This document shows, piece by piece, positions 2,067 through 40,656 of a stretch of 59,073 nt of DNA. A program made the position numbers and the translations under genes. The DNA lies in the IMG/VR virus record IMGVR_UViG_3300034106_001917, positions 1 to 59,073 of that record. One strand, 5' to 3'. The notes below the pieces were generated by a model. That model worked only from the letters and a program-made list of their open reading frames with translations. It did no database searches and had not been told where the DNA came from. Source of the stretch: a virus. Lineage: Duplodnaviria; Caudoviricetes. Within the stretch, counting starts at the first letter, position 1. Each line of letters starts with the position of its first letter.

Positions 2067-2970
2067 TGCATTTATTGAAGAAATAAGCAAAAGATTACAA
2101 ACAGACAGAGACATTTATTTTTTGTCAGCAGATTTTGGTGCAGCAGCACTAGATTCTCTGCGTGAAATGTATCCAGATAACTTCATTCATTGTGGTATCT
2201 CAGAACAAGCAATGATTGACATTGCAACTGGTCTTGCACTTCAAGGTAAAAAAGTATTTTGTTATGCAATGGCACCATTCATCTCTCTTCGTGCAATTGA
2301 ACAAATCAAGTGTGGACCATCGATGATGAATCTACCAATTGCTATTCTTTCAGTTGGTATTGGTATTGGTTATGCCGATGCTGGTCCTACACATTACATT
2401 ACTGAAGACTTTGCATGTATGCGTTCAATTCTCAATCTGAATGTCTATACATTGGCAGATGCAAGTTCTGCAAAAAGATTAGCAAATAGTCTCTTAGACA
2501 ATCCCGAATTGTGTTATGTTCGTTTTGATCGACATGAACAACCAGAACTACCTGTAACCAACTTTACACAAGACTTGACTTATCGTTTGATGGGTGACAC
2601 AGTTACTTCAGAGAAAGTTCTTGTGATTGGTTCAGGTAAGATGTCACACATCATTGCTGATGTCTATAAAGAAACTTCAGATAAAGTTGTTGGTATTGAT
2701 TTGATTCGTGCCAAACCATTTCCTAATACACTGAATATGTTGTTAGAAGAATGTGGTGGTGTAATTGTAGTTGATGAACAAACACCATGCGGTTCTTTGG
2801 GTGCCGCTGTGCTTGAAGCAATGTCGCAGAGAAACTCACTCAATAAAAAAGTAAAAGTAATCACACTACCAGAAGAGTATTTGTTTGAGAATGGTGGTCG
2901 TGAATATCTACTAAAGAAACACGGTTTGAGCAAAGAAAATATTCTGAAAACACTCAATGATAATTTCTAG
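2050..2970 (+). CDS. Transketolase, C-terminal subunit
   Basis: LSADFG, GISEQAMI, GPTHY..ED, YVRF. ATG at 2050 follows AGGAG at 2041. Confidence 0.9.
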   Translation: MMLQRDAFIEEISKRLQTDRDIYFLSADFGAAALDSLREMYPDNFIHCGISEQAMIDIATGLALQGKKVFCYAMAPFISLRAIEQIKCGPSMMNLPIAILSVGIGIGYADAGPTHYITEDFACMRSILNLNVYTLADASSAKRLANSLLDNPELCYVRFDRHEQPELPVTNFTQDLTYRLMGDTVTSEKVLVIGSGKMSHIIADVYKETSDKVVGIDLIRAKPFPNTLNMLLEECGGVIVVDEQTPCGSLGAAVLEAMSQRNSLNKKVKVITLPEEYLFENGGREYLLKKHGLSKENILKTLNDNF

Positions 2971-3940
2971 AACACCATACAGACTATCACTGTTTGGTGG
3001 TGGAACAGATTATCCAGATTGGTTTCAATCAAGGCAGACTAAGGTAATATCTGCCGCTATGGCGCATTATTGCTACATAAATTTAAAAAAGTTACCGCCT
3101 TATTTTGATTATGTAAATAGAGTTATCTACTCTAAAATAGAAAGTGTATCTGATGTTTCGCAAATAGAGCATCCTTCTGTAAGGGAGTGTTTAAAATACT
3201 ATGGCATACCTAACGGCGTTTCTATTACTCACGATGGCGATCTTCCTGCTCGTTCTGGCATTGGATCATCTTCTTCATTTACTGTTGGACTGATTCACGC
3301 TATACTGACATCACAAGGTAAGTTGCCTACACCATATGGTTTGGCAATGGATGCTATCAATATAGAACAAAACTATATTGGTGAGTCTGTTGGTGTTCAA
3401 GATCAAATCATGGCTGCGTACGGTGGCATTCGTGTCATTGAACTTTCTGGTGCAAACATGCATGTTCGTGACCTGAGAATCAAAGACGATTATGTTTTAG
3501 ATTTAGAAGATCATATCATGTTGGGTTTTTCTGGCATTGACAGATTTTCAAATGTTCATGCTAAACAACAGATTGATGCTATCAAAGAGGGTAAATCTAA
3601 AAAGCTTCTTGAAGAAATTACAACAATTACCGAAACAGCATTGCATATTCTTGAGAATCATGGTAAAATAAAAGAGATAGGTGAATTGCTGAAGTATCAG
3701 TGGAGCCGTAAGCGTGAACTTACAGATAGTGTTACAACTGATTACATAGATACAATATACAACAAAGCAATCAATGCTGGTGCATATGGTGGTAAGTTGA
3801 TGGGTGCAGGTGGTGGTGGATTCTTTATGTTTCTTGCACCACCAGATACACATCAAAAGATAAAAGAAGCAATACCTGGAATCAATGTATGGGTGCCTTT
3901 CAAGTTTGATTTTGAAGGCTCAAAAATTATTATGGAGTAA
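2957..3940 (+). CDS. GHMP kinase, HddA-like (heptose-7-phosphate kinase family)
   Basis: ISRTPYRLSLFGGGTDYP, LPARSGIGSSSS, GVQDQ, GKLMGAGGGGF. Confidence 0.88.
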   Translation: MIISRTPYRLSLFGGGTDYPDWFQSRQTKVISAAMAHYCYINLKKLPPYFDYVNRVIYSKIESVSDVSQIEHPSVRECLKYYGIPNGVSITHDGDLPARSGIGSSSSFTVGLIHAILTSQGKLPTPYGLAMDAINIEQNYIGESVGVQDQIMAAYGGIRVIELSGANMHVRDLRIKDDYVLDLEDHIMLGFSGIDRFSNVHAKQQIDAIKEGKSKKLLEEITTITETALHILENHGKIKEIGELLKYQWSRKRELTDSVTTDYIDTIYNKAINAGAYGGKLMGAGGGGFFMFLAPPDTHQKIKEAIPGINVWVPFKFDFEGSKIIME

Positions 3941-5118
3941 TGATGAAGTATCCTTTAATGTCAGACAATATTACTAGAGAAGATTTAGATTTGGTAATAG
4001 AACATCTAAAAAAAGATAATCCTAAACTTACAAATGGACCAGAGTGCCGTGCTTTTGAAGAAGCATGGAGTAAATGGCTTGGTGTAAAGTATTCTGTGTT
4101 TGTCAACTCAGGTGCTTCTGCAAATCTGTTGTCAATGACAATGTTGAAGATCAAACATCCAGAGGGTGGTGAAGTTATCGTGCCACCATTCACATGGGTG
4201 TCTGATATTGCTTCTATACTTCAATGTGGTTTTACTCCAGTGTTTGTGGATATTGATTTAGATACACTTGGTATGAATGAGTTTGGCATACTCAATGCAA
4301 TCACTGACAAGACACGTGCAGTCTTTATTACATATGCACAAGGCTTTGATTGCTTATCTCCTAGAGTATTAGAAGTTCTACGTCATCGTAAAATACCTTT
4401 GATTGAAGACGTTTGTGAATCACACGGTGCAACACACAACGGTAAATTGTTGGGAAGTTATGGTTGGATGTCTAACTTCTCTTTCTACTTTGCACATCAC
4501 ATGTCTACTATTGAAGGTGGTATGGTGTGTACAAATGATCCTGAAGTGTATCACACAGTTCGTATGCTTCGTTCACACGGTATGGTTCGTGAATGTGGTG
4601 ACTGGATAATGGCTGACAAATATAAAGCAGAATATCCAGAGTTGAATTCAGACTTCATATTTGCCTATGCTGCCTACAATATGCGTAACAATGAAATTGG
4701 CGGTATACTTGGGCAAAATCAGTTGAAACATTTGGATGAAAATGTTAAACTACGAAATGAGAATCTATTTTACTTCTTGTCAAAACTAGATCAAAAGAAA
4801 TATAAGGTTGACTTTAGATTGATTGGTTGCAGTAACTATGCGTTCAACATTGTTTTACAGCCAGAGTATGCAAACAAAGAGTTCGTAGAGAGATTGATGG
4901 GCAAGATGCGTGATGAACAAATTGAGTTTCGTCGTGGCTCTGCTGGTGGTGGTAATCAACTACGTCAACCATACTTGAAAAACATTGTGCCAGAAGATCA
5001 TTACAAGAAATTTCCAAATACTGATCACATGCACTTTTATTCTTTTTACATTGGTAACTATCCAACATTAAGTAAAACAGCAATTGATGAAATCACAAGC
5101 GTATTGAATAGGGTATAA
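3940..5118 (+). CDS. DegT/DnrJ-fold PLP enzyme, ColD/E1-like NDP-4-keto-6-deoxysugar 3-dehydratase
   Basis: VNSGASAN and IEDVCESHGA. SFYFAHHMSTIEGG has His in place of the aminotransferase Schiff-base Lys. Confidence 0.8.
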   Translation: MMKYPLMSDNITREDLDLVIEHLKKDNPKLTNGPECRAFEEAWSKWLGVKYSVFVNSGASANLLSMTMLKIKHPEGGEVIVPPFTWVSDIASILQCGFTPVFVDIDLDTLGMNEFGILNAITDKTRAVFITYAQGFDCLSPRVLEVLRHRKIPLIEDVCESHGATHNGKLLGSYGWMSNFSFYFAHHMSTIEGGMVCTNDPEVYHTVRMLRSHGMVRECGDWIMADKYKAEYPELNSDFIFAYAAYNMRNNEIGGILGQNQLKHLDENVKLRNENLFYFLSKLDQKKYKVDFRLIGCSNYAFNIVLQPEYANKEFVERLMGKMRDEQIEFRRGSAGGGNQLRQPYLKNIVPEDHYKKFPNTDHMHFYSFYIGNYPTLSKTAIDEITSVLNRV

Positions 5119-5119
5119 T

Positions 5120-6052
5120 ATGAATATATTAGTGACTGGTGGTGCTGGCTATATTGGCTGCATTCTAACAGAATATTTGTTACAGATGGGTCATGAAGTG
5201 ACTGTCATTGACAACTTCATGTATAAGCAAATTGGATTGAGTCATCTTTGTGAAAACAAAAAACTTACTATTGTAAATGGTGACATTCGTAATCCACATC
5301 ACATGACACCTCTGTTGAAAAAAGCAGATGTGATTATACCTCTTGCTGCTCTTGTTGGTGCGCCGCTGTGTAACAAAGATGTTGTTGGTGCAGATACAAC
5401 AAACAAAGATGCAATGTTCTGGATGTTGAACAGCGTTTCAAATGAACAGCGTATCATTATGCCTACAACAAATTCGGCGTATGGCACAGGTGACGAAAAC
5501 AATTTCTGTACAGAAGAATCACCACTGCGACCAATCTCAAAGTATGCAATCGATAAAGTTGCAGTTGAAGAACGACTGATGCAACGTGAGAATTCTATCA
5601 GTTATCGGCTTGCTACAGTGTTTGGTATGTCACCACGTATGCGTACAGATTTGCTAGTAAATGATTTAGTTTATCGTGCAGTCAATGATGGTTATGTAAT
5701 TATCTTTGAAGGACATTTCAAACGTAATTATATTCACGTGCGTGATGTGTGTGAGGCATTTCTTCATGCGATGTATCAGTTTGAAGAGATGAAGAGTAAC
5801 ATCTACAATGTGGGCTTATCATCGGCCAACGTGTCTAAACTAGAACTCTGTGACATTATCAAGAAACACATTCCAAGTTTCACAGTTGTGGAAGGTGATA
5901 TCAAGAAAGATCCAGATCAACGTAACTACATTGTCTCTAATGAAAAGTTAGAAGCAACTGGTTGGATGCCTTACTACACACTAGATAATGGTGTAGAAGA
6001 ACTCATCAAGGGTTATACATACTTGAAGAATAATATTTACGGTAATGTATAA
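5120..6052 (+). CDS. NAD-dependent sugar epimerase/dehydratase (extended SDR)
   Basis: TGGAGYIG, YAIDK (YxxxK), RLATVFG, RNYIHVRD. Confidence 0.9.
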   Translation: MNILVTGGAGYIGCILTEYLLQMGHEVTVIDNFMYKQIGLSHLCENKKLTIVNGDIRNPHHMTPLLKKADVIIPLAALVGAPLCNKDVVGADTTNKDAMFWMLNSVSNEQRIIMPTTNSAYGTGDENNFCTEESPLRPISKYAIDKVAVEERLMQRENSISYRLATVFGMSPRMRTDLLVNDLVYRAVNDGYVIIFEGHFKRNYIHVRDVCEAFLHAMYQFEEMKSNIYNVGLSSANVSKLELCDIIKKHIPSFTVVEGDIKKDPDQRNYIVSNEKLEATGWMPYYTLDNGVEELIKGYTYLKNNIYGNV

Positions 6053-9846: not shown

Positions 9847-10415
9847 GTGAGATATTAACAATTGATACTTCTGCTGGAATACAGCAGATAGAAAAGGTTG
9901 ATCCTTTACGTGTTTTTGGTGAAGACTATTTTATGCTTGGGCAAAAGATACCAGAATACAGTGGTGGATTTCCAGCGCCGGCGTTAGTGACATTAGCCAA
10001 AAGATTGAAGATGACAATGAAACTGTATGCTGGTTTAGGTTTGTCTGCCAATCAATGTGGTGTTGCTGAAAGAATGTTTGTTATTGGCACAGAAGAGTTT
10101 CAGTTAGTGTGTATCAATCCCAAAATCATTGATCAAGGGCCTTTAGTAAAAGATAAAGAAGGTTGTCTTTCTTTTCCTGGTTTGTTTTTGAATGTCGATA
10201 GACCCTCATGGATTGAGGTAGAGTTTACAGATGAAAATGGTAACGTAAATCAAGTAAAACTTCATGGATTATCTGCACGTTGTTTTCTTCATGAACTTGA
10301 TCATTTGAACGGAATAAGATATACTAATCTTGTAAAACCACTTGCATTGAAAATGGCAAGACAAAAGGCAAACAAAATCGTAAAGAAAATTGTAAGGGAA
10401 AATAAAAAACAATGA
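9843..10415 (+). CDS. def: Peptide deformylase
   Basis: GLGLSANQCG, EGCLS, HELDHLNG. Confidence 0.93.
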   Translation: MSEILTIDTSAGIQQIEKVDPLRVFGEDYFMLGQKIPEYSGGFPAPALVTLAKRLKMTMKLYAGLGLSANQCGVAERMFVIGTEEFQLVCINPKIIDQGPLVKDKEGCLSFPGLFLNVDRPSWIEVEFTDENGNVNQVKLHGLSARCFLHELDHLNGIRYTNLVKPLALKMARQKANKIVKKIVRENKKQ

Positions 10416-11218
10416 TAGATAAACTTCTTGAAAAGATCATACAAGAAAAAGTTCACGACAAAGAGGTCGCTGTTTTACTGTCTGGTGGTGCTGATTCATT
10501 GTCAGTTGCTCTTGCTGCACATAGGTTAGGATATGATGTACATGCTTATTCATTTCATCTAAAAGACTTACCGACTTATGATGCCAGTAAAGCGGAAGAT
10601 TCTTCAAGCAAGATGGGTTGGAAGTTTACTAAAGTAATTGTTCCAGTAGATAATCTTGTAGAAGATTTTCACACATTAAGAAAAAAGTTTGAGTGTGTAA
10701 AGAAAACACAGTATGAATGTACGTTTCCTTTTCTGTATATTTTTCCACAGATAAAAGAGAAAAATATTCTTTCAGGTTTTGCTGCTGATGGACACTATGG
10801 TGTTTCGAAAAAAGCATGTATACATTTTAAGCAGCCTAAAGAATTGTTCGATCAGTTTCGTTCCAGTTATCTAAGTGATCCTCCAGGTTTAAGACAACAA
10901 TTGGCACTAAGCAAATACTATAATAAAGAGTATATAACACCATATACGGATCAAAGAGTGATTGATTACTTTCATCAGTTTGATTGGTTTCAGGTTAATC
11001 AACCTTATCAGAAGCATCATGTAGTGGAAGCGTTTACCGAATTTAAAACAATAGGTAAACCTAAACATCATATCAATCTTCAATTAGGCTCTGGTATTGA
11101 CAAGGCATTTGAAAGCCTGCTAGAATGTAATGAAATAAATTACAAAAGACGAAATCGAATGTTAGACGTTTATAGAGATTGGAAAGATCGTGGCGAAATA
11201 CGAACACTATTTGATTGA
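10412..11218 (+). CDS. Asparagine-synthetase-like (PP-loop) ATP-dependent amide ligase, no glutaminase domain
   Basis: LSGGADS PP-loop; SGFAADGHYG resembles AsnB SGEGADELFG; TPYTDQRV resembles VPFLD; LQLGSG. Confidence 0.75.
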   Translation: MIDKLLEKIIQEKVHDKEVAVLLSGGADSLSVALAAHRLGYDVHAYSFHLKDLPTYDASKAEDSSSKMGWKFTKVIVPVDNLVEDFHTLRKKFECVKKTQYECTFPFLYIFPQIKEKNILSGFAADGHYGVSKKACIHFKQPKELFDQFRSSYLSDPPGLRQQLALSKYYNKEYITPYTDQRVIDYFHQFDWFQVNQPYQKHHVVEAFTEFKTIGKPKHHINLQLGSGIDKAFESLLECNEINYKRRNRMLDVYRDWKDRGEIRTLFD

Positions 11219-12428
11219 AGATGTAAGAAAATCTTCCGCACGTGAATTGTTTACCGTTGTTAGCACATTTGCTGGCGGCGGTGGTAGTTCTACGGGTTAT
11301 CGTTTGGCTGGTGGTAAAGTCATTGCTATCAACGAGTTTGTTGAAGAAGCAATAAAAACTTATTCTACAAATTTTCCAGACACAAAAATCATACCTGGTG
11401 ATATTAAAAAACTTAATGGGAAAGATTTTCTTGAAGTAGCGAATCTAAAAGAAGGTGAACTCGACATACTTGATGGTTCACCACCATGCTCTGCTTTCTC
11501 TGTTGCTGGTAAAAGAGAAAAGAATTGGAAGGGTGCAGTTCATTACGAATCAGATAGTTACTTTGACTTTGACACAGGTGAAATGGTTACTGTTGGTGGC
11601 TATGAAGTCAAAGATGGTGTCAAAAAATATTCTGACGATCAAGTAGTTGAAGCAATTGAAGATTTGTTTCTTGAGTTCATTCGTATTGCTAAAGACATTA
11701 AGCCCAAAGTAATCATTGCTGAAAATGTCAAAGGCATCACGATGGGTAAAGCAAGAGATAAACTACATCAATTTCAAAATGAATTTGAAAAGATTGAGCC
11801 TGGTTATTTGGTCACGCATCATGTATTGAACGCTGCTGATTACGGTGTACCGCAAGCACGTGAAAGATTGTTCTTTGTTTGTGTTCGTCAAGATGTTGCT
11901 GACAAGGTTGGATTAAACTTTTTGAACATGAACACAATGACTTTTCCAATTCCCTCAACACCAAAACACATTAGCATTAAGACTGCCATTGATAATGTTG
12001 TGAATGATCCCGACGAAGAAAAAGAGTTGCTTGACTTTGTTGAAGGTTCTTTCCAAAAGAAATTTATTGAACTGTTACCGTTCAATCCAACAAAGCATAC
12101 GAAGCCATCTGATCCAGAGTTTCGTGACAAGAATCCAAAAGGTTCATGCTTTAATATGATTCGACCAGCAATCAATTTACCATCACCGACTTTGACACAA
12201 GCAGGTCAACAGAAAGGTGTGAGTGGCGTTTTTCATTATGCAAAGAATCGTAAGTTGACTATCAAAGAATTGAAGATACTGATGAGCATTCCTGATGACT
12301 ATGTACTAACGGGTAAGTTCGATCAGCAAGCAGAAAGATTGGGTAGAATGGTTGCACCTAAGATGATGGCTGCATTGTCATCACACGTGTATGAAAACAT
12401 TCTGAAACCATACAAGGAATCGTTATGA
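11190..12428 (+). CDS. C5 DNA cytosine methyltransferase-family enzyme (predicted carboxymethyltransferase)
   Basis: Motif I FAGGGG, IV GSPPC, VI ENV, VIII QARER, IX RKLTIKE. Motif X reads LGRMV instead of the usual GN(A/S)V. Confidence 0.9.
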   Translation: MAKYEHYLIEDVRKSSARELFTVVSTFAGGGGSSTGYRLAGGKVIAINEFVEEAIKTYSTNFPDTKIIPGDIKKLNGKDFLEVANLKEGELDILDGSPPCSAFSVAGKREKNWKGAVHYESDSYFDFDTGEMVTVGGYEVKDGVKKYSDDQVVEAIEDLFLEFIRIAKDIKPKVIIAENVKGITMGKARDKLHQFQNEFEKIEPGYLVTHHVLNAADYGVPQARERLFFVCVRQDVADKVGLNFLNMNTMTFPIPSTPKHISIKTAIDNVVNDPDEEKELLDFVEGSFQKKFIELLPFNPTKHTKPSDPEFRDKNPKGSCFNMIRPAINLPSPTLTQAGQQKGVSGVFHYAKNRKLTIKELKILMSIPDDYVLTGKFDQQAERLGRMVAPKMMAALSSHVYENILKPYKESL

Positions 12429-13105
12429 CTAAGTTTACGTTTGCACAAAGAGAAGAAGGCTTTGACAATCACATAGAACATTCTATTCGTGGTTACACAA
12501 ATCTTTGGAATGATGTGTTGAAGTATTCTGAATACTTTGTTGAAGATGATACAAATGTTGTTGACATTGGTTGCTCTACAGGTAAGTTGCTTAAGGCAAT
12601 GATCGACCAAAACACTTTTGCACCACGTGCCAACTATGTTGGTATTGAAGTAGAAGAAGATTTTTTTGACACATATGATGCTGATGAAAAGCAATTTCAA
12701 TATTTGTCTTATCATCGTGGAGATGTTCGTGACTTTAAGTTTGAAAACTGTAGTTTGATAACATCAATTTTTACCTTACAGTTCATACAAGAAAAAGAAA
12801 GAACCGCAATCATCAAACAAATTTATGATGGCTTGAATCCTGGTGGTGCTTTTATCTTTGCTGAAAAAACAATTGCAGAATGTTCTAAGATACAAGACAT
12901 AAGAACGTTTACCTACTACGATTACAAACGTGAACACTTTACCTCAGATGACATACTCAATAAAGAAAAACAATTACGTCACATGATGAAGTTGAATACC
13001 CGAAAAGAACTCATCAATAAATGTGGCACGGCAGGGTTTTCGTTTGATCGTATCGATTCCTTCTGGCAAAACCATAGCTTTACCGCATTTGTTGCCATAA
13101 AGTAA
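12425..13105 (+). CDS. cmoA: CmoA-like carboxy-S-adenosylmethionine synthase
   Basis: FDNHIEHSIRGY resembles CmoA FPDMIQRSVPGY; also DIGCSTG, FTLQFI, IYDGLNPGGAFIFAEK. Confidence 0.8.
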   Translation: MTKFTFAQREEGFDNHIEHSIRGYTNLWNDVLKYSEYFVEDDTNVVDIGCSTGKLLKAMIDQNTFAPRANYVGIEVEEDFFDTYDADEKQFQYLSYHRGDVRDFKFENCSLITSIFTLQFIQEKERTAIIKQIYDGLNPGGAFIFAEKTIAECSKIQDIRTFTYYDYKREHFTSDDILNKEKQLRHMMKLNTRKELINKCGTAGFSFDRIDSFWQNHSFTAFVAIK

Positions 13106-13186: not shown

Positions 13187-13215
13187 TTGACAAACCCCAG
13201 TATCCCATGTATAAT
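13187..13215 (+). promoter_or_regulatory. sigma70-type (early) promoter, perfect consensus
   Basis: TTGACA-17 bp-TATAAT upstream of the 13245 ATG. Confidence 0.88.
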
Positions 13216-13244
13216 GTATGTTCAGTGACAGTCGAGGTTATCGA

Positions 13245-15536
13245 ATGAGCAACATTCAAAATCAAAAGTCCGGTCTTGCCAAACTCATGGCAACCGAGAA
13301 TCTTATTGTTCAACATGCCAAAGTACCAACGGCATCGTTTGATCCTAAAAACCGTGTTCTAACTTGTCCCATTTGGGAACAAATGTCGGGCGATCTTTAT
13401 GATTTGCTAATGGGTCATGAAGTTGGTCATGCCATTGACACACCTGCCGATGGCTGGCATGGTGCTGTACATGATCGTGGTCTAAACTACAAAGGCTTTT
13501 TGAATGTAGTTGAAGATGCACGTATCGAAAAACGACAGAAGCGCCGTTACCCTGGTCTGCGCCGTTCGTTTGTGAACGGCTTCAATGAACTCATGGCCAA
13601 AGACTTTTTTGGTCTGTCTGGTCGTAGTGTCAATGCACTACCATTCATTGATCGTTTGAATATCTACACAAAGTCTAGTTATTCTTTGGACATTCAGTTC
13701 AATGCAAAAGAACAGGAATTTGTTGATCGTGTTCAGGCTTGCGAAACTTGGGATGATGTTCTCAAAGTTACAAATGAGATTTGGGACTATTCAAAAGAAG
13801 AACAGTCTCAGACTAACACACCTCAAGATAACTTTGAGTATGATGAGGGTGATGACGATTACGAAACAGAACCAGGCTCAAATGAAGGCGATGCTGAGAC
13901 TGATGGTCAAGGTGAACAAAAATCTAAGACCAAAGCCAAAGGTGAAGATGGTGATCAAGAGCAAGAATCATCGGCAAGTGGTGATGAAGAGGCTGATGAA
14001 GAAGGTGATGGTGAAGGTGAAGACAAAGATGGTGTAAATCGCACCAAAGAATCTCAGAGTGTACGTGAGGATCAAAGTTCTGAACCACGGTGTGAGACTG
14101 ATGAAAACTTCCGCAACAATGAAAGCAAACTCATTGCGAAACATGCACGTGAGTATATTTACATTGATATACCTAAACCGAATCTTGCAAAGATTGTTAC
14201 ACCAGCAAAACGTGTGCAAGAAGTTCTGACTGAAGAGTTTTCGAAACAGCGACCTTCTGACTATCAAACTCTTGCCAATACTCTGTACAATGATTTTCGC
14301 CGTAAGAACGAACGATTCATTTCATTGTTGGCAAAAGAGTTTGAGATGCGTAAGGCTGCCGATAAGTTTTCTAAAGCGAAAACATCGTCAACTGGTGACA
14401 TTGATGTAAGCCGTGTCTTCAAATATCAGATTGATGATAGCATTTTCAAAAAAGTTATGCGTGTGCCTAAAGGCAAATCACATGGCTTGATTCTGTTGCT
14501 TGATAAGTCTGGTTCAATGTCTGAGAATCTTGGTGCATCATATGAACAGATACTTGTGTTGGCTACCTTCTGCCGCAAAGTAAACATACCGTTTTCGGCG
14601 TACGGTTTTGGCAATGCTGATCATGTTCGTGAAATGATCGATTTTCGTGGTGAAGAACCTGGTGCGGGTAAATCTTATGGTTGTTTCTCTGAAAACAATC
14701 GTGAGATGCACTTGTCTTCGGTGTATCTACGTGAGATGATCAATTCTAAAATGAGTAACTCAGAATTTTCTAAAGCAACAAAGAATATTCTGTGTCTCAT
14801 GAATGCATGGTCTGGTGGTCGTTATTCTAGAGGTTCAAGTTTTTATCGACCAACTTCAGATTCACTGTCCAACACACCGTTGACAGAGGCAATGATTGCT
14901 TGTCAATCGATCATCAAAGAGTTCCGCACTGTGAACAATCTTGATATTGTAAACTTGTGTGTGGTTCATGATGGTGATGCTGATGATATCAATTCGTATC
15001 ACAATCTGAATGAGAGTGCAAGCATTTCGAGCAATCGAACTTTTTTCAATGCAAACTATCACAATGTTTTTCTGACTGATAAGAAAAACAAAATTCAACA
15101 AGAGGTGCCTGAAGGTGATGATGGTGTTCGTATTGCTATCAGTAATTGGTTGACAAAAACAACTGGTGTGAAAATCATCGGCTTCTATTTGTCGCCCAAC
15201 TACAATATGAAAAATGCTGTTCGCCGCCGTTTGTTCAATGCTGAACTTGATGAACTGCGTAAAGCACCACGTGAGAATTATCTTCAAATCAAAGAAACCT
15301 ATGCCAAGTATATCAAACTGATTCGCAAAGATAAGTTTCTCGAATCAAGAAACCCTGGTTACGAATCATTCTTTATTCTACCGGGTGGTGGTGATTTGAG
15401 TATTGAAGATGAAGACTTTGAGGCACCAACAAAAGTTACCACGGCAACTTTGACTAAAGCATTCGGCAAGTATACTAAGAATCGCCAAGTCAATCGTGTT
15501 CTGGTATCACGTTTCATCGGTATGATAGCAGTTTGA
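13245..15536 (+). CDS. CobT-like protein: N-terminal HExxH metallopeptidase-like domain, acidic linker, vWA domain
   Basis: HEVGH, NVVEDARIE, D/E-rich linker, MIDAS LLDKSGSM...TPL...HDGD. ATG at 13245 follows GAGGT. Confidence 0.8.
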   Translation: MSNIQNQKSGLAKLMATENLIVQHAKVPTASFDPKNRVLTCPIWEQMSGDLYDLLMGHEVGHAIDTPADGWHGAVHDRGLNYKGFLNVVEDARIEKRQKRRYPGLRRSFVNGFNELMAKDFFGLSGRSVNALPFIDRLNIYTKSSYSLDIQFNAKEQEFVDRVQACETWDDVLKVTNEIWDYSKEEQSQTNTPQDNFEYDEGDDDYETEPGSNEGDAETDGQGEQKSKTKAKGEDGDQEQESSASGDEEADEEGDGEGEDKDGVNRTKESQSVREDQSSEPRCETDENFRNNESKLIAKHAREYIYIDIPKPNLAKIVTPAKRVQEVLTEEFSKQRPSDYQTLANTLYNDFRRKNERFISLLAKEFEMRKAADKFSKAKTSSTGDIDVSRVFKYQIDDSIFKKVMRVPKGKSHGLILLLDKSGSMSENLGASYEQILVLATFCRKVNIPFSAYGFGNADHVREMIDFRGEEPGAGKSYGCFSENNREMHLSSVYLREMINSKMSNSEFSKATKNILCLMNAWSGGRYSRGSSFYRPTSDSLSNTPLTEAMIACQSIIKEFRTVNNLDIVNLCVVHDGDADDINSYHNLNESASISSNRTFFNANYHNVFLTDKKNKIQQEVPEGDDGVRIAISNWLTKTTGVKIIGFYLSPNYNMKNAVRRRLFNAELDELRKAPRENYLQIKETYAKYIKLIRKDKFLESRNPGYESFFILPGGGDLSIEDEDFEAPTKVTTATLTKAFGKYTKNRQVNRVLVSRFIGMIAV

Positions 15537-15540
15537 TAAC

Positions 15541-15574
15541 ATACCGCTACTTGACAAAGTGGCGGTATCCTTTT
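15541..15574 (+). terminator. Hairpin/terminator overlapping a promoter
   Basis: ATACCGCTACTT-GACA-AAGTGGCGGTAT followed by CCTTTT, directly after the stop at 15536. Confidence 0.65.
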
Positions 15575-15579
15575 ATAAT
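15551..15579 (+). promoter_or_regulatory. sigma70-type promoter
   Basis: TTGACA-17 bp-TATAAT. Confidence 0.85.
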
Positions 15580-16822: not shown

Positions 16823-16854
16823 AGAGAGAGTGTTGACACACTCTCTCTTTTTTT
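16823..16854 (+). terminator. Intrinsic terminator overlapping a promoter
   Basis: AGAGAGAGTGT-TGAC-ACACTCTCTCT (11-bp perfect stem) followed by a T tract. Confidence 0.85.
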
Positions 16855-16861
16855 GTATAAT
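16833..16861 (+). promoter_or_regulatory. sigma70-type promoter
   Basis: TTGACA-17 bp-TATAAT. Confidence 0.85.
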
Positions 16862-34265: not shown

Positions 34266-35108
34266 ATGAAAGATGTGATTGTAGGCTGTGCCAACAACTA
34301 TGATTGGTCCAAACTAAAATATTGGGTCAATTCTATCAATCAATCAGGCTTTGAAGGTGACAAAGTTCTGATTCTCATGAACTGTGATAAAGATACCGTA
34401 CAAAAAGTATCTAACGCAGGCTTCTCAATCATTGCATTCAATCAAGACACTGAAGGTAATTTGAAGTATCAATCGAATCTTATGGTTCACGTTGAACGTT
34501 TTGTTCACATTTACAAATTACTCAAAAGCAATGATTATCGGTATGTAATTACTACTGACGTAAGAGATGTTATCTTTCAAAAGAATCCTGTAGAATGGTT
34601 AGAAGAGAATCTTTCAGCACAAGAAGATTTGGTATTCTCTTCTGAGAGTATGAAATATAAAGATGAGCCATGGGGTCGTGAAAATATCACACAATGTTAT
34701 GGTCAAGGCATCTATGATGATTTCAAGAACAACACGATCTTCAATGTGGGTGTTCTTGCTGGTCGAGGTCATGCAATGAGAGACCTGGTGCTACAGTTAT
34801 TTTTGAACTGTATCAACAGACCAATTCCAATTGTAGATCAGGCAGTATTCAACGTAATGGTATCAAGACATCCATATGTGAAAACATCAATGTACATGAA
34901 ATCCGAAGAAGGCTGGGCATGTCAATTAGGCACAACTGCCGATCCAAGTAAGATCGAACAATTCAGACCACATCTTTTAGAACCATCACCGAAATTAGAA
35001 GGTGATAAGGTTGTAACTTCAACAGGAATAGAGTATACTATTGTACATCAGTATGATCGTGTGCCAGAATGGCGTAAAGTGATTGAGGCAAAATATGACG
35101 ACAAATAG
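34266..35108 (+). CDS. Glycosyltransferase-like protein (GT-A)
   Basis: TDVRDVIFQ.NP, NVGV, DQAVFN, VHQYDR. Confidence 0.65.
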   Translation: MKDVIVGCANNYDWSKLKYWVNSINQSGFEGDKVLILMNCDKDTVQKVSNAGFSIIAFNQDTEGNLKYQSNLMVHVERFVHIYKLLKSNDYRYVITTDVRDVIFQKNPVEWLEENLSAQEDLVFSSESMKYKDEPWGRENITQCYGQGIYDDFKNNTIFNVGVLAGRGHAMRDLVLQLFLNCINRPIPIVDQAVFNVMVSRHPYVKTSMYMKSEEGWACQLGTTADPSKIEQFRPHLLEPSPKLEGDKVVTSTGIEYTIVHQYDRVPEWRKVIEAKYDDK

Positions 35109-35775
35109 AATCAAAGAACTATTTTGGGAATTAGAAAAACCATCTACTAAATGGTCAGGCTACTTTGATGTTTATGAAAGACATCTAAAGAAGTTTGTGG
35201 GTAAAGCACCACGCATACTTGAAATTGGTGTACTTGGTGGCGGCTCAATTGAAATGTGGCTGAAATACTTTGGACCAGATACATCAGTTGTTGCCATTGA
35301 CATCAACGAAGAATGTTTGAAATATGAGTATACTGGTGATGTCAAGATTGTGATGGGTGATCAAGGCGACCCAGAGTTTTGGGATGAGTTTCTCAAAACA
35401 CAAAACAAGTTTGACATTGTAATTGATGATGGCTCACATGTAATGAATCATCAAATCACTACACTCAACAAAGTTTTTCCACACATCAAAGAGGGTGGTG
35501 TATACATTTGTGAAGACACTCACACAAGTTATTGGCCACAGCCATGGGGTGGTGTATTTCGTGGTGCTGGCACATTCACCGAACACTGTAAGCGGGCAAC
35601 TGATATAGTCAATCAGCAGCACTTTCAAGGCTCACCAATTTCACAAGATGCACTAGATGCATATCACAATCTGTATTCTGTAGCATTCTACAACAGTATG
35701 GTTGTGATGGAAAAAGAACAACTCAAGCCATTTGGCATCACAGACAACAAAGCAAACGTGGGGCGTGAACTATGA
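35095..35775 (+). CDS. Class I SAM-dependent methyltransferase (sugar O-methyltransferase-like)
   Basis: KW..YF..YERH, LEIGVLGGGS, GDQ, IDDGSH, GGVYICED. Confidence 0.85.
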   Translation: MTTNRIKELFWELEKPSTKWSGYFDVYERHLKKFVGKAPRILEIGVLGGGSIEMWLKYFGPDTSVVAIDINEECLKYEYTGDVKIVMGDQGDPEFWDEFLKTQNKFDIVIDDGSHVMNHQITTLNKVFPHIKEGGVYICEDTHTSYWPQPWGGVFRGAGTFTEHCKRATDIVNQQHFQGSPISQDALDAYHNLYSVAFYNSMVVMEKEQLKPFGITDNKANVGREL

Positions 35776-36485
35776 GAATAGCACTCTGTATCTCTGGCCA
35801 ACCAAGAATGTGGGAAAAAGGCCATGCATATCATTACGAAAATATTATCAAAGATAATGATGTAACTGTCTTTCTGCATTCATGGGAAATGCCCGCTGAA
35901 GAGATGCAAAAGATTTCTTCAAAGTATAATGCATACAGTTTCAAAACATCACCAAATCCTACAGTTGATTTGTCAAAGTATACAAACACACCACCACCAT
36001 CACCAAATTGGAAAGTCAAAGATGGTCGTATGTCAACATATGCTCAGTTGTATGCAATCAGAGAATGCATGAAAACAAAGTATGAATATGAAAAATACTT
36101 TGAAATGAAGTTTGATTGGGTCATTCGTTCACGATTCGACTTTGCTATTAACACTCGTATACCATTTGAAGAACTAGACAATAGTAAGTTGTACATACCA
36201 AACTGTCGCATGACACCAGAACGTGACTTTGGTAATGATCAGTTTGCGTTCTCATCATCCGAAAATATGGACAAGTATGCTGATGCTTACAATCACATTG
36301 ATGAGTTCTACAATTCTGGTGTGCAATACATGATGGAAGATTTCATGAGTGCCAACTGGAAGAGACACAATCTTGTTGGTGAAAATCTTGTATATTGCGA
36401 TGTCAATCATCCGTTTTCACCAGGAGAATATAACAGCACATGGCATTCTCTTTTGAGAAATGATATGGAAGAATGGCTCAAATGA
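35772..36485 (+). CDS. Glycan-modification/GT-like protein
   Basis: MRIALCISGQPR, FLHSW, IRSRFD, NDQFAF pattern, typical of glycan-island proteins. Confidence 0.55.
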   Translation: MRIALCISGQPRMWEKGHAYHYENIIKDNDVTVFLHSWEMPAEEMQKISSKYNAYSFKTSPNPTVDLSKYTNTPPPSPNWKVKDGRMSTYAQLYAIRECMKTKYEYEKYFEMKFDWVIRSRFDFAINTRIPFEELDNSKLYIPNCRMTPERDFGNDQFAFSSSENMDKYADAYNHIDEFYNSGVQYMMEDFMSANWKRHNLVGENLVYCDVNHPFSPGEYNSTWHSLLRNDMEEWLK

Positions 36486-37204
36486 ATCTGATAATCTGTA
36501 TGGCGGGTTACAACACCCGTTTCCATGACGTTGGCTTTGACATACCAAAATATCTTTTGCCTTGGAATGGCAAAACAATCATATACGATATTTTGAAGAA
36601 TCTTGGTTGGGTCAATCAACTTATTCTTGTGGCCAACAAAAGAGACATTTATTTCAAAGAGCAACTTGTTGAAGCAATCAAGCCATTGGGATGGAACGAA
36701 AGTAATATTCTTTATATCGGTGATACAAAAGGTCAAGCACACACAGCAGCGATTGGAATTGAACAACTGAACAACAAGAACTTACCAACATTTGTACACA
36801 ATGCAGATACAATCATCAAGGGTCGTCGTATAGATTTTATTGCCGATGACTTGACCGCAAAGCATGATGCATACATTGATGTGTTTGTGGGTAATTCACC
36901 AAAGTATTCTTATGTTCGTGCATTTGAAAACACGGTAATTGAAATTGTGGAAAAGAAACAAATCTCACCTTATGCATCATCGGGCTTCTATGGTTTTCTA
37001 ACTGGTCATCTTTACCTAGAATATTATAACAAGTTAGCCGAAAAAGATGGTGAATTGTATATTGCAGATGTGATACAAAGTATGATACAATCTAATAAAC
37101 AAGTATTCATGAATCCTCTTGGCAGCAATCAAGAAACGATTGTGCTAGGCAGTCCTCAAGAATACGGTATTGAGATAGCAAGGCAAACACTAGGTGCAAA
37201 ATGA
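36482..37204 (+). CDS. Sugar-phosphate nucleotidyltransferase (NTP transferase family)
   Basis: MAGYNTRF...PKYLL, TKGQAHT, NAD, EKKQIS, ELYIA, LGSP. Confidence 0.82.
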   Translation: MNLIICMAGYNTRFHDVGFDIPKYLLPWNGKTIIYDILKNLGWVNQLILVANKRDIYFKEQLVEAIKPLGWNESNILYIGDTKGQAHTAAIGIEQLNNKNLPTFVHNADTIIKGRRIDFIADDLTAKHDAYIDVFVGNSPKYSYVRAFENTVIEIVEKKQISPYASSGFYGFLTGHLYLEYYNKLAEKDGELYIADVIQSMIQSNKQVFMNPLGSNQETIVLGSPQEYGIEIARQTLGAK

Positions 37205-38154
37205 CAACTATACCATTGAAAGGTGGCTCACTCAGTAAAACTTACTGGCTACCAGATGAGAAGATTGTTCGCAAAGAAATCTCACGTATAAAAAATCGTG
37301 AATATGGTTTCATGCGTTGGTATTCTCAGTTGAAGAAGTTACAAGAATATAACACACTGTATCCTGGTTTGTTTCCTAAAGTTGTAAATGTAGATTCTAC
37401 TAGTGTTGAAGCATGGTTTGATTTGGAATATCTTGAAGGCTTTCGTGATATCAAAAGCATTCTTAGTAAAGACACACTGAGTGAAGAACAAATCTTCAGA
37501 ATGAGTCAAGCAGTCTGGAGAGGACTGAATACACTTCACTCAATCAGAAAAGAACCTATTGCTGGCACACCAAAACTTTATTTTGTTGAAGAGATACAAC
37601 AGAAGATTGAAGATGCCATCAAAATAAAAGAGTTTGAAGATTTCTTCTATTATGGCACTTACCATTTCAATGGTGAAGTTGTTACAGGTATAGGTGGTTA
37701 TCTTCATGTTCTGAAAGAATACTTTGCAGAATTAGAAAATGATGATGAGTGTAACATTCACGGTAATCCTACACTAGAAAATATCATGTATTCATTTAAT
37801 GAAGATCGTGTTGTCTTCATTGACTTATATGATGAGAGTATGTGGAACACCAAGTATCTTGACTATGCACAAGTGTTACAATGTTCTCGTAGTCACTATG
37901 GCTTCATCAACGATCATGATGTTCGTGTAAAAGGAATTGATGTGTCTATTTCTCATGGTGGTGTGGATCACTTTGAGACATTCAACAAACACTTTATCTC
38001 TGAGTTACCAGAAGATAAAATGAAACTCATAGATATACTAGAAGCATCACAGTTCATTCGTATGCTTCCGTTCAAACTGCTTGCTGGTGATATTGATAAA
38101 GCAAAATATTTTTATGTTCATGCATGTAAACTGTTTAGTAAGGCGATGAAATGA
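37201..38154 (+). CDS. Aminoglycoside/choline-kinase-like phosphotransferase
   Basis: GGSLS Gly loop, VRK, LEYLEG, HGNPTLENI, FID. Confidence 0.7.
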   Translation: MTTIPLKGGSLSKTYWLPDEKIVRKEISRIKNREYGFMRWYSQLKKLQEYNTLYPGLFPKVVNVDSTSVEAWFDLEYLEGFRDIKSILSKDTLSEEQIFRMSQAVWRGLNTLHSIRKEPIAGTPKLYFVEEIQQKIEDAIKIKEFEDFFYYGTYHFNGEVVTGIGGYLHVLKEYFAELENDDECNIHGNPTLENIMYSFNEDRVVFIDLYDESMWNTKYLDYAQVLQCSRSHYGFINDHDVRVKGIDVSISHGGVDHFETFNKHFISELPEDKMKLIDILEASQFIRMLPFKLLAGDIDKAKYFYVHACKLFSKAMK

Positions 38155-39287
38155 GTTTAGACTTTATGATGGATTATGACAAGTTCAAACGAACTTGGTC
38201 AGTCAAAACAGAACTACCAGTAGAATTCAAACTTACATACTCTGCTGACATCTTCAGCCCAAGTAATCAAGATATTGTAAACATCACGAACAGTGATCGT
38301 AGAATTATTGTTATTGATTCTGAAGTGCATGATCTATACAAAGATAGCATTGCAGCATACTTTGGCGCTGTCAAGTTGAGTTGCAAAATACTTTGTGTAG
38401 ACTGCAAAGAAGAAAATAAAAACTGGAAGAATGTAGATCGTATCTTAGACTTTTTTGAACAGAATGGAGTGTTACGCCGTGAACCGATTATCGCAATTGG
38501 CGGGGGTGTCCTGCTTGACATTGTTGGCTTTGCTTGCAGCATTTATCGTCGTGGAATTCCATATATCAAAATCCCCACAACACTTCTGGCGATTGTTGAT
38601 GCATCAGTCGGCTCAAAAGTAGGTGTCAATCATTTAGGTAGACGCAATCGTATTGGTGCGTACTATCCACCATTGGCGACATATATTGATAAGAAGTTTA
38701 TTCGCACACAGAGTGAACGTGAGATTGTCAATGGCATTGCAGAGATATTCAAACTTGCAGTCATCAAATCACCAGAACTATTTCATCTGCTAGAAGAAAA
38801 TGCAGAGATATTGATTGATGAAAAGTTTCAGTATGGTGCAGTGCCAGTTCGTGTAATCAATCTTGCTATCACAGATATGATTGCAGAACTAGGACCAAAC
38901 CTGTGGGAAAAACGATTAGATCGTTGTGTAGATTTTGGTCACACATTTAGTCCTGTGATTGAGATGGCTAACATACCAGAGTTGTTACATGGTGAAGCAG
39001 TAGCGTTAGACTGCTTGTATAGTTCGTGTATTTCATTCATTCGTGGTTACATTGACACAGTTCAATTGAAACGAATCTTTGGTGTTGCAAAGAGATTGAA
39101 ACTAAAAACATTTCATAAAGACTTCACAAACATGAAGTATTTGTTAGAAAGTCTGCGTGATGCAACCAAACATCGTAATGGCGATCAGTATGCACCACTA
39201 CCTATTGCAATTGGCAACTACAAGATTGTCAATGATATCACAGAAGATGAAATGAAATTGGCTATTGATCTTTTTGAGGAGATATGA
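38151..39287 (+). CDS. Sedoheptulose-7-phosphate cyclase, EEVS-type (DHQS superfamily)
   Basis: GGGVLLDIVGF, PTTLLAIVDASVG.K, AEIFK, ELGPNLWE...RCVDFGHTFSP, LLHGEAV. Confidence 0.85.
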   Translation: MSLDFMMDYDKFKRTWSVKTELPVEFKLTYSADIFSPSNQDIVNITNSDRRIIVIDSEVHDLYKDSIAAYFGAVKLSCKILCVDCKEENKNWKNVDRILDFFEQNGVLRREPIIAIGGGVLLDIVGFACSIYRRGIPYIKIPTTLLAIVDASVGSKVGVNHLGRRNRIGAYYPPLATYIDKKFIRTQSEREIVNGIAEIFKLAVIKSPELFHLLEENAEILIDEKFQYGAVPVRVINLAITDMIAELGPNLWEKRLDRCVDFGHTFSPVIEMANIPELLHGEAVALDCLYSSCISFIRGYIDTVQLKRIFGVAKRLKLKTFHKDFTNMKYLLESLRDATKHRNGDQYAPLPIAIGNYKIVNDITEDEMKLAIDLFEEI

Positions 39288-39958
39288 TGCGTAAGGTTGC
39301 TGTAGTCACTGGTTGTAGTTATGGTCTTGGTTATGATATAGCAGGTAGATTAATTGATGAGGGCTATTTTGTTTATGGTCTATCACGTTCACAACCACCT
39401 ATGGACTTGTATTCATATCCCGATACATTTGAATGGGTTGAATGCGACATAACAAAGTCAAAACAAGTTGAAGATGCATTTAAAACAATTGGCACATACA
39501 TTGATGTGCTTGTAAACAATGCTGGTGTGTATGAGTGGGGATTGTTCAAAGACGAACTTTCATTTGAATCGATAGACAAGATTATTGATTTGAATGTCAA
39601 AGGCACGATGTATGTAACACTAAAAGCACTCAAGTTACTGAATAAAGGTAGCGACATTTTCTTCATCAATTCTGTTGCTGGTCTAAAAGAGATGGAATGG
39701 GAAGCAGTTTACTCAGCATCTAAACATGCCATCACAGCATTTGCTGGTGCATTGGGTGCAGAATTACACACACAGATGAATGAGATTCGTGTCACAAGCA
39801 TTCATCCTGGTGGTATACAAACACCTATGCAAAAAGATCACCCAGATAGAAAGAAGTTTTTAGAACCAAAAGAAGTAAGTGACACGATTGTTCATGTCAT
39901 TAAATCAAAAGCAACTTACAAAACAATCAAACTATTTTCGGATGTAGAATGGCACTAA
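39284..39958 (+). CDS. Short-chain dehydrogenase/reductase
   Basis: TGCSYGLG, NNAG, YSASK, HPG. Confidence 0.9.
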   Translation: MMRKVAVVTGCSYGLGYDIAGRLIDEGYFVYGLSRSQPPMDLYSYPDTFEWVECDITKSKQVEDAFKTIGTYIDVLVNNAGVYEWGLFKDELSFESIDKIIDLNVKGTMYVTLKALKLLNKGSDIFFINSVAGLKEMEWEAVYSASKHAITAFAGALGAELHTQMNEIRVTSIHPGGIQTPMQKDHPDRKKFLEPKEVSDTIVHVIKSKATYKTIKLFSDVEWH

Positions 39959-40656
39959 TACCCTCACAACAGATGTTCATTGTAACATCTGCACTCAACC
40001 CAAATATGGGCATACTCAATCGCCAAGAAAGACTTGAACAAACGATTGAAGGTCTTGTGTCACTCAGACGAAAATGTCCAGACGCCATTGTTATTTTGGC
40101 TGATGGTTCACCAGAGCCAGTAGAAAGAGAAAAATATGACAGTATGAGTCAATTTGTCAATCTGATTGTTGATTTTTCTGGTGATAGGGAAATAGCACAA
40201 TTTGCGTCAATTGGCCGTAAAAGTGAAGCAGAGAATGTGTTGATGTTAAAAGTGATGATGCTTTTAAAACAATCAGCGAACATGATGCGATTGATGCATT
40301 CTGTTAGTAGAATTTATAAATTTTCAGCACGGACCGTATTTCTTGATGATTTTGATATAACTGAACATGATCACTTTGGAAAATATGTGTTCAAAAAAAG
40401 AATGCCAACTTGGATGGGCGGTGAAGTTGCTGAAACATTTACTGATTTACTGATTACTCGTTTTTTCTCATTTTGTCCGAGTCTGATTGATGATTATTCA
40501 ATTGTTTGTAGAAGAAATGTTGATGTAATTCAAAATACTAGAGTTGACACTGAACATGCTCATTTCTTCAACATTGAGTCTGACCGTCTTGTAGAACTTG
40601 ATAAAATACACTGTCAAGGTGTCATGGCCAGCACAGGAGCAACGGAAATCTACTAA
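39949..40656 (+). CDS. Hypothetical GT-like protein
   Basis: IVTSAL...R.EQT...LADGS...KS.AE...YKFSAR pattern, within the glycan island. Confidence 0.55.
   Translation: MALIPSQQMFIVTSALNPNMGILNRQERLEQTIEGLVSLRRKCPDAIVILADGSPEPVEREKYDSMSQFVNLIVDFSGDREIAQFASIGRKSEAENVLMLKVMMLLKQSANMMRLMHSVSRIYKFSARTVFLDDFDITEHDHFGKYVFKKRMPTWMGGEVAETFTDLLITRFFSFCPSLIDDYSIVCRRNVDVIQNTRVDTEHAHFFNIESDRLVELDKIHCQGVMASTGATEIY

Follow-up and report, generated by a model that had tools for sequence, protein, structure and literature searches.

The 59-kb stretch of viral DNA analysed here (the window) very probably carries, judged by homology, a cmoY-cmoX-cmoA module of the kind characterized in Synechococcus phage S-B43, which would make a modified cytosine. 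Since the CmoA-CmoX-CmoY system of S-B43 has already been published and all three proteins of the window match it closely, the cassette adds an instance to a known system rather than defining a new one. A preliminary description of this DNA had identified three overlapping genes between positions 10412 and 13105, encoding an AsnB-like PP-loop protein, a protein with the C5-methyltransferase (MTase) fold and a CmoA-like protein, and both the open reading frames and the family matches agree with it; its remark that a similar phage cassette had recently been reported was correct (S-B43; PMC12783734). The two phages encode the same three protein families with 48–49% full-length identity, and pairwise matches to the S-B43 trio are far beyond chance (E values of 1e-87 for CmoY, 2e-124 for CmoX and 2e-76 for CmoA). 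Every function proposed below is assigned by homology, with identities near 48%. As the preliminary description suspected, whatever is new in this clade would lie in its target motif and its amine.

CmoY, CmoX and CmoA of S-B43 were described by Yang et al. (Nat Commun 2025; PMC12783734), whose report covers the pathway, the structure, the key arginine and the spread over thousands of phage contigs; it was published in December 2025, and its survey included IMG/VR, the source collection of the present record. In that pathway CmoA produces carboxy-SAM (Cx-SAM), CmoX forms 5-carboxymethylcytosine at GC, and CmoY ligates glycine with the use of ATP. LC-MS detected Cx-SAM, 5cxmdC (m/z 286.1) and 5gcxmdC (m/z 343.1), the glycine-ligated nucleoside corresponding to dC+115; S-B43 virion DNA contains 5gcxmdC, and the modified DNA was resistant to HhaI (PMC12783734). 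In the crystal structure of SpCmoX (PDB 8YF3), R350 contacts the carboxylate of Cx-SAM, at the position corresponding to HhaI N304, the motif X Asn of 5mC enzymes, and F25, E47, F48 and D69 touch the adenine and ribose. Wild-type SpCmoX takes Cx-SAM only and refuses SAM, the R350N variant accepts neither, and the SPPC motif (S95-C98) served as a search criterion for CmoX (PMC12783734).

The window comes from an uncultured T4-like myovirus, and its cassette (Table 1) lies among the replication genes of that phage, within their module. The genes cmoY and cmoX overlap by 29 nt and cmoX and cmoA by 4 nt (ATGA), and an upstream peptide deformylase gene overlaps cmoY by 4 nt (ATGA); the overlaps couple the cassette genes translationally. 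S-B43 is likewise a T4-like myovirus with a tightly packed same-strand cluster, but its gene order is cmoA-cmoY-cmoX in contrast to cmoY-cmoX-cmoA in the window. The DNA polymerase of the uncultured phage is ~52% identical to that of its nearest cultured phage relative, and identity to the CmoX of the window does not exceed 49% in any of the cultured phages in the collection. A near-identity DNA search of positions 1–25000 against cultured phages gave a sole match of 188 b, in a translation-repressor gene.

Table 1. Features of the cmoY-cmoX-cmoA cassette, with functions assigned by homology
Feature	Position	Strand	Description
cmoY	10412..11218	+	268 aa, ATG start; homologue of stand-alone AsnB-type ATP-dependent amide ligases
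CmoY PP-loop S-G-G-A-D-S, aa 24-29	10481..10498	+	ATP pyrophosphatase signature, seen in the translation
cmoX	11190..12428	+	412 aa, GTG start; DNA cytosine C5-carboxymethyltransferase homologue
CmoX motif IV S-P-P-C, aa 97-100	11478..11489	+	C100 is the putative catalytic nucleophile, equivalent to SpCmoX C98 by alignment
CmoX variable insert past the PC motif, aa 109-150	11514..11639	+	from alignments of relatives, SpCmoX and HaeIII
CmoX six extra residues Q-Q-K-G-V-S, aa 340-345	12207..12224	+	directly 3' of the conserved P-T-L-T motif, in the target-recognition region
CmoX motif X G-R-M-V, aa 385-388	12342..12353	+	R386 corresponds to SpCmoX R350 by alignment
cmoA	12425..13105	+	226 aa, ATG start; carboxy-SAM synthase homologue
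Promoter TTGACA-17-TATAAT, perfect	13187..13215	+	in the 112-nt gap 3' of cmoA

CmoX belongs to the Pfam DNA_methylase family (PF00145; E 3e-53) and is 49% identical to SpCmoX over the full length. Its best match in the PDB was SpCmoX with Cx-SAM (8yf3; E 7e-106, residues 7–406 aligned to 5–370), followed by the HaeIII MTase (E 4e-21). Motif X was confirmed as the previously noted G-R-M-V (G385-R386-M387-V388), so that Arg386 occupies the place of the Asn found in canonical 5mC MTases of the Dcm, HhaI and HaeIII type (G-N-x-V). The SPPC nucleophile and the motif X Arg are common to the window and S-B43, as are the four checked adenine and ribose contacts of Cx-SAM, with F27, E49, F50 and D71 aligned to F25, E47, F48 and D69. 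Among the 78 full-length CmoX relatives, both SPPC and the motif X Arg are kept in every one. A regular-expression search had suggested Tyr at motif X (G-Y-Q/E-V) in 18 relatives; this was an artefact, as the alignment places the match elsewhere in the protein and Arg at motif X in 78/78. The long insert after the PC motif, pointed out earlier, is real, with ~40 extra residues relative to HaeIII (residues 79–89 of HaeIII correspond to 108–158 of the window protein), but it is not a hallmark of activity: it was present in 61/78 full-length relatives and missing from 17/78, and SpCmoX, which is active, has a version with ~20 fewer residues. Carboxymethyl transfer would thus not need the insert, which by these alignments is a lineage-variable indel.

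CmoA aligned over its full length with both the biochemically verified SpCmoA (48% identity) and the E. coli CmoA structure 4gek (residues 4–226; E 1e-25), and it fell into PHROG 4752 (E 8e-59). Its best NCBIfam match was TIGR00740, the CmoA equivalog (E 2e-31), where its 109.4 bits lie below the cut-off of 193.3 bits. The verified SpCmoA scored 115.6 bits on the same model, likewise under the cut-off, so the TIGR00740 threshold is unfit for the phage clade and the low score is uninformative rather than negative evidence. We further examined linkage in 80 related IMG/VR viral loci, 78 of them with a full-length CmoX. CmoA lies beside CmoX in 74/80; five of the six loci lacking CmoA end 0–1115 b past cmoX. 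CmoY was found in 69/80. No substitute ligase was found in the loci without CmoY, where we observed the order deformylase-CmoX-CmoA (L047, L052), a 180–186-aa ORF with no Pfam match (L066–L069), or a clamp loader and a TauD-family dioxygenase (L071).

These observations bear on the reading in which CmoX is an ordinary 5mC methyltransferase, the CmoA-like protein acts elsewhere, in host tRNA cmo5U formation or by SAM depletion as an anti-defence measure, and their linkage is incidental. SAM depletion is raised as an untested side effect in the published work (PMC12783734), and the CmoA score under the NCBIfam cut-off could be taken in the same direction; the verified SpCmoA, however, falls equally below it. 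Since motif X carries Arg where 5mC enzymes have Asn, wild-type SpCmoX uses Cx-SAM only and not SAM (PMC12783734), and the exceptions to CmoA–CmoX linkage are, in 5/6 cases, truncated contigs, we consider an ordinary 5mC enzyme extremely improbable. CmoB (TIGR00452), which the tRNA pathway would call for, had no match in the 59-kb record, and neither ParB nor any MTase other than the cmoX product, the sole C5-MTase of the record, was found there; the record is estimated to be 32% complete, so these absences hold for these 59 kb alone. It had also been suggested that reversion of the Arg to Asn would yield 5mC, but the published R350N variant of SpCmoX is inactive with both cofactors (PMC12783734), and no switch to 5mC is therefore to be expected.

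CmoY matched the Pfam Asn_synthase family over residues 3–129 only (E 3e-11), and no glutaminase domain was detected in it by Pfam or by fold search. Like its S-B43 counterpart, it consists of a synthetase domain alone and contains a PP-loop, and the two are 48% identical over 266 aa (249 bits). Across 64 CmoY sequences, and in SpCmoY as well, the PP-loop residues S24, G26, D28 and S29 do not vary, and SpCmoY has 38/39 of the columns that are invariant across the window protein and 63 viral CmoYs. A search of the PDB by sequence gave only a marginal PP-loop match (3k32; E 0.0075), and it was the fold search that placed CmoY. The AF2 model (pLDDT 91.3) found, as its best Foldseek matches, beta-lactam synthetase (1mc1; E 2e-10, TMq 0.71) and AsnB (1ct9; TMq 0.74), in both cases over the synthetase domain only, and it also superposes on the synthetase domain of carbapenam synthetase.

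For the cassette of the window, we propose that CmoA would convert SAM and host prephenate to Cx-SAM. By the standard C5-MTase mechanism, Cys100 of CmoX would attack C6 of cytosine while R386 holds the carboxylate of the cofactor, and the carboxymethyl group would pass from Cx-SAM to C5 of cytosine in phage dsDNA after replication, giving 5-carboxymethylcytosine. CmoY would then adenylate the carboxylate of this base with ATP and couple a free amine, most likely glycine, to give 5-glycylcarboxymethylcytosine, and the modified DNA would resist restriction endonucleases. The chain from CmoA through 5-carboxymethylcytosine to amidation as an anti-restriction measure, put forward in the preliminary description, is supported by the S-B43 homologues, for which it was shown experimentally (PMC12783734) and with which the window proteins share 48–49% identity and the defining residues. 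Homology, conserved catalytic and cofactor residues, fold and gene linkage are what the analysis shows, and the module very probably encodes the activities that form 5cxmC. The lineage that carries it is T4-like, uncultured and distant from S-B43. The module also points to two questions that the published work leaves for study: whether an insertion in the recognition region of CmoX alters the target motif and whether recombining CmoY alleles alter the amine.

The proposed pathway can be compared with three other systems. The engineered M.MpeI N374K has the C5-MTase fold and a basic residue in place of the motif X Asn, which allows it to use Cx-SAM and form 5cxmC (PMC12783734); by its description there, it is set apart from the window CmoX as an engineered enzyme with Lys instead of Arg, a CG target and no dedicated CmoA or ligase. 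In the bacterial CmoA/CmoB pathway to tRNA cmo5U34, the product of E. coli CmoA is the same as that predicted for the CmoA of the window, Cx-SAM; CmoB is missing from the 59-kb record, and the consumer of Cx-SAM is a homologue of DNA C5-MTases, so the substrate would be DNA cytosine and not tRNA uridine. AsnB, beta-lactam and carbapenam synthetases constitute a class of ATP-dependent, acyl-adenylate-forming amide-bond enzymes, whose C-terminal synthetase domain, PP-loop included, resembles the modelled CmoY (TMq 0.64–0.74). In contrast to them, CmoY is about half as long, without their N-terminal glutaminase domain (TMt ~0.4), shares only 14–21% identity, and has as its predicted carboxylate substrate a modified base in DNA.

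Whether the CmoX of the window recognizes GC, as SpCmoX does, is in our estimate an even call from sequence comparison. The target-recognition region (aa 236–355) is 34% identical to that of SpCmoX, compared to 60–63% in the catalytic blocks, and after P-T-L-T it contains a 6-residue insertion that SpCmoX lacks, together with further indels; the insertion was seen in all eight clade representatives printed (the window and 7 loci). GC specificity is for this reason not secure, and an enzyme with the same chemistry reading a longer or different motif, and thereby modifying another, perhaps smaller, share of the cytosines, comes only slightly behind it in likelihood. Such divergence would accord with the authors' own statement that the specificities of further CmoX enzymes are yet to be determined (PMC12783734). 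On the other side, the core elements P-x-P-T-L-T and F-N-x-x-R are common to the window CmoX and SpCmoX. Base composition is uninformative either way, with an unremarkable GpC frequency in the window (rho* 1.05). The 59 kb contain 2233 GpC sites, and if GC is the target, up to ~20% of the phage cytosines could carry the modification. CmoX is 40 aa longer than SpCmoX, with a post-PC insert that is ~20 aa larger and the 6-aa insertion in the recognition region.

Among closely related phages, cmoY has the structure of a recombination mosaic. The window and L002 share a tract of ~1 kb with 99–100% identity on a backbone of 83–92%, and the CmoY core has 54–70% nucleotide identity to that of L003, L006 and L008 on a backbone of 82–90%. 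Two groups of CmoY alleles are separated by 52 fixed differences.

Glycine is the probable amine coupled by the CmoY of the window, on the strength of its homology to SpCmoY. Coupling of another amine to 5-carboxymethylcytosine, whether a different amino acid, a polyamine or free ammonia, which would leave a final base other than 5gcxmC, appears unlikely to us. It would fit with an identity to SpCmoY of only 48% and with the CmoY core, which among close relatives diverges and is exchanged more than any other part of the locus, but both allele types keep all the family-invariant residues, of which SpCmoY has all but one. Moreover, the pairwise E of 1e-87 at 48% identity lies within the threshold of the published CmoY sequence network (E 1e-56, about 30% identity; PMC12783734), at which the window CmoY would link directly to SpCmoY, although the pairwise E scale differs from that of an all-against-all search. 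The earlier proposal named ammonia or an amine; the characterized ligase adds glycine (dC+115), not ammonia (dC+57; PMC12783734), and the CmoY of the window has no glutaminase domain that could deliver ammonia. That the clade has diversified at both specificity points, with a CmoX motif other than GC and interchangeable CmoY alleles attaching different amines, seems quite improbable; if true, near-identical phages in one population would differ in the chemistry of their cytosine hypermodifications, which recombination would exchange as part of an arms race against modification-dependent nucleases.

On the 3' side of cmoA, the perfect promoter starts the next transcription unit and thus marks the 3' boundary of the unit that contains the cassette. 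Sigma-70-like sites of all grades around the cassette numbered 33, compared to 33.6 in shuffled sequences, and only the perfect TTGACA-17-TATAAT sites were significant, with three in the window against 0.01 expected (100 shuffles).

The three ORFs of the cassette were recovered at exactly the positions first assigned to them, all on the plus strand, and family scans bore out the assignment of their products to Asn_synthase, C5-cytosine DNA methylase and CmoA. The same pathway has already been published for the homologs of Synechococcus phage S-B43 (Yang et al., Nat Commun 2025, PMC12783734). In that account, SpCmoA converts SAM and prephenate to carboxy-SAM (Cx-SAM); SpCmoX, a C5-MTase homolog accepting Cx-SAM as its only cofactor, writes 5-carboxymethylcytosine (5cxmC) at GC sites; and SpCmoY, an asparagine-synthetase homolog, joins glycine to 5cxmC with ATP. 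S-B43 virion DNA is described there as containing the glycine adduct nucleoside 5gcxmdC and no 5cxmdC, with modification at ~10% of C and 75% of GC sites. A literature search on CmoX returned no further relevant paper among the matches listed. The preliminary description was right in both its observation and its interpretation, Cx-SAM-dependent cytosine hypermodification, and the cassette is a further example of the published system, in an uncultured T4-like lineage.

Positions of the features in the window
Feature	Position	Strand	Remarks
cmoY (ORF1)	10412-11218	+	268 aa, ATG start
cmoX (ORF2)	11190-12428	+	412 aa, GTG start
cmoA (ORF3)	12425-13105	+	226 aa, ATG start
Six-residue insertion in CmoX	12207-12224		aa 340-345
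Perfect TTGACA-17-TATAAT site	13187-13215	+	intergenic gap, coding strand
Perfect TTGACA-17-TATAAT site	15551-15579	+	intergenic gap, coding strand
Perfect TTGACA-17-TATAAT site	16833-16861	+	intergenic gap, coding strand
Terminator-like hairpin	15541-15568		overlaps -35 hexamer
Terminator-like hairpin	16823-16848		overlaps -35 hexamer
772-aa ORF	13218-15536		PHROG 459, annotated 'peptidase'
Sugar-nucleotide genes, group 1	2957-6052		within replication module
Sugar-nucleotide genes, group 2	34266-43215		within replication module
595-aa ORF	46418-48205		partial match to PHROG 353

ORF2 is a C5-cytosine DNA methylase (PF00145, E 3e-53) with 49% identity to SpCmoX (194/400, E 2e-124, pairwise). 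Among all PDB sequences its best match was the SpCmoX structure 8YF3 (E 7e-106, residues 7–406), followed by HaeIII methylase (E 4e-21). The G-R-M-V previously read at motif X was confirmed as G385-R386-M387-V388, and R386 aligns with SpCmoX R350, the residue that touches the cofactor carboxylate in 8YF3 at 1.9 Å and is equivalent to HhaI N304; SpCmoX R350N is reported to accept neither cofactor (PMC12783734). The alignment also places S97-P98-P99-C100 on SpCmoX S95–C98, and F27, E49, F50 and D71 on F25, E47, F48 and D69, the Cx-SAM adenine/ribose contacts. SPPC and the motif-X Arg were retained in all 78 full-length CmoX relatives (two partial matches were left out), and the Arg is preceded by G in 75 of them, by A in one and by C in the other two. 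Only 10 cultured-phage records contain a CmoX relative, at 39–49% identity.

The best NCBIfam match of ORF3 was the CmoA equivalog TIGR00740 (E 2e-31); the protein is 48% identical to SpCmoA (110/229, E 2e-76, pairwise) and aligns with E. coli CmoA 4gek over its full length (E 1e-25). Its TIGR00740 score of 109 bits is below the curated cut-off of 193 bits, as is that of the verified SpCmoA (115.6 bits), and the cut-off therefore does not discriminate in this phage clade.

CmoY is 48% identical to SpCmoY (129/266, E 1e-87, pairwise) and contains the PP-loop SGGADS. It matched Pfam Asn_synthase at residues 3–129 only (E 3e-11), and the family scan found no glutaminase domain in it. A sequence search against the PDB gave no informative match; AlphaFold2, given 31 viral homologs, produced a confident model (pLDDT 91.3, pTM 0.88), and Foldseek returned 41 matches at E ≤ 0.001, including 1mc1 (beta-lactam synthetase; E 2e-10, TMq 0.71), 1ct9 (AsnB; TMq 0.74) and carbapenam synthetase, in each case to the synthetase domain. 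In contrast to CmoY, these three enzymes have N-terminal glutaminase domains, for which the model has no counterpart (TMt ~0.4). Since the synthetase fold is present and the glutaminase part is absent, the model fits an acyl-adenylate amide ligase whose nitrogen donor would be a free amine rather than ammonia released from glutamine. That amine is probably glycine: SpCmoY has 38 of the 39 columns that are invariant across the window protein and 63 viral CmoY sequences, columns which served as a proxy for the glycine-binding residues given in a supplementary figure of the S-B43 report (PMC12783734).

To follow the linkage of these genes, IMG/VR was scanned with the window CmoX, yielding 104 candidate stretches, of which 96 were confirmed and 80 loci kept (56–98% identity); neighboring genes were located by local tblastn with the window CmoY, CmoX and CmoA. 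CmoA was present in 74 of 80 loci, a sample of the query's nearest relatives that speaks for this clade and not for all GRxV enzymes. Frequent occurrence of GRMV-type MTases without cmoA, which the preliminary description held would argue against its reading, is thus not seen within the clade. Five of the loci without CmoA (L038, L070, L075, L074 and L078) end 0–1115 b past cmoX and, with cmoA beginning ~1.1 kb downstream in the loci most closely related to L074 and L078, are not assessable. The sole assessable exception to the linkage is L071, where 5 kb of downstream and 2.9 kb of upstream sequence contain no cmoA. The CmoX relative at this locus (L071:2941-5938) reads C-R-M-V at motif X, and the genes after it encode a clamp loader and a TauD-family dioxygenase. 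The wider published survey covered 5615 CmoX sequences and reports 4257 CmoA on their contigs (PMC12783734).

CmoY was present in 69 of 80 loci. It was not found within 5 kb on each side in L052 and L066–L069, so a two-gene form consisting of cmoX and cmoA exists; one flank was short in the remaining 6 of the 11 loci. In four of these two-gene loci (L066:6211-6753, L069:6235-6795, also L067 and L068), an ORF of 180–186 aa with no Pfam match lies between cmoX and cmoA, and could be an unrecognized accessory of the system. The tblastn range matching CmoY at L053:4193-5014, found likewise at L054:842-1663, includes one in-frame stop codon in L053; this may reflect disruption of the ligase gene or an alignment that overruns a shorter C-terminus. 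The window's order, Y-X-A, occurred in 46 of 80 loci, followed by X-Y-A (15), X-A only (9), X-A-Y (4), Y-X only (4) and X only (2), whereas S-B43 has A-Y-X.

The long insert noted after the PC motif is present, with CmoX having ~40 residues more than HaeIII. Because this insert (aa 109–150), found in 61 of 78 relatives, is missing in 17 and ~20 residues shorter in SpCmoX, it is dispensable for the chemistry. Identity to SpCmoX is 63% over aa 1–108, 60% over aa 151–235, 44% over aa 356–412 and 34% over the recognition region, aa 236–355. In the target-recognition region, the conserved P-T-L-T is directly followed by six extra residues that the aligned clade representatives share and SpCmoX lacks; these residues could change the sequence specificity of CmoX. 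If the target is GC, the 2233 GpC sites of the window, which hold 20% of all cytosines, are candidate CmoX targets.

Judging from nucleotide identity in sliding 120-nt windows, cmoY is a recombination mosaic. L002 is 99–100% identical to the window over ~10,200–11,200, spanning the deformylase 3' end and all of cmoY, against a backbone of 83–92%; its CmoY is 100% identical and the neighboring proteins 82–98%. Conversely, L003, L006, L007 and L008 are 97% identical to the window in CmoX and 92% in CmoA, and only 68–69% in CmoY. In L003, L006 and L008, the loci that reach the deformylase (89% identity), the cmoY core at ~10,530–11,010 falls to 54–70%, against a backbone of 82–90%. The two CmoY allele groups have 52 fixed amino acid differences, concentrated in aa 41–200. 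The pattern of exchange gives a low probability of a substrate difference between the alleles; the retention of all family-invariant residues in both groups argues for the same chemistry.

The cassette is the end of a run of overlapping genes: cmoY overlaps the stop codon of the upstream peptide deformylase by 4 nt (ATGA), cmoY and cmoX overlap by 29 nt, and cmoX and cmoA by 4 nt. The 112-nt gap 3' of cmoA contains the first of three perfect TTGACA-17-TATAAT sites, with 0.01 expected in the window. At the other two, the hairpin overlaps give a putative terminator–promoter arrangement between early genes. The listed ATG of the 772-aa ORF is 3 nt past the -10 hexamer of the first perfect site; ATG 13245 (residue 10) is a more likely start, and the PHROG match starts from residue 13.

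The record is linear, 59,073 b long and estimated to be 32% complete. PHROG scans revealed a T4-like replication module comprising a gp47/gp46-type nuclease pair, peptide deformylase, CobS-like AAA ATPase, clamp loader, DNA polymerase, UvsX, DnaB-like helicase, primase and ribonucleotide reductase. The DNA polymerase is ≤52% identical to that of any cultured phage, with cyanomyoviruses closest. CmoX is the one C5-MTase in the record, in which CmoB, ParB_N, N6_N4_Mtase and Dam families had no match. The two sugar-nucleotide groups include PHROG matches to an aminotransferase, a nucleotide-sugar epimerase, a glycosyltransferase and an 838-aa cytidylyltransferase fusion. The 595-aa ORF, with no annotated match elsewhere along its length, matches PHROG 353, annotated 'toxin', at residues 66–124 (E 3e-12).
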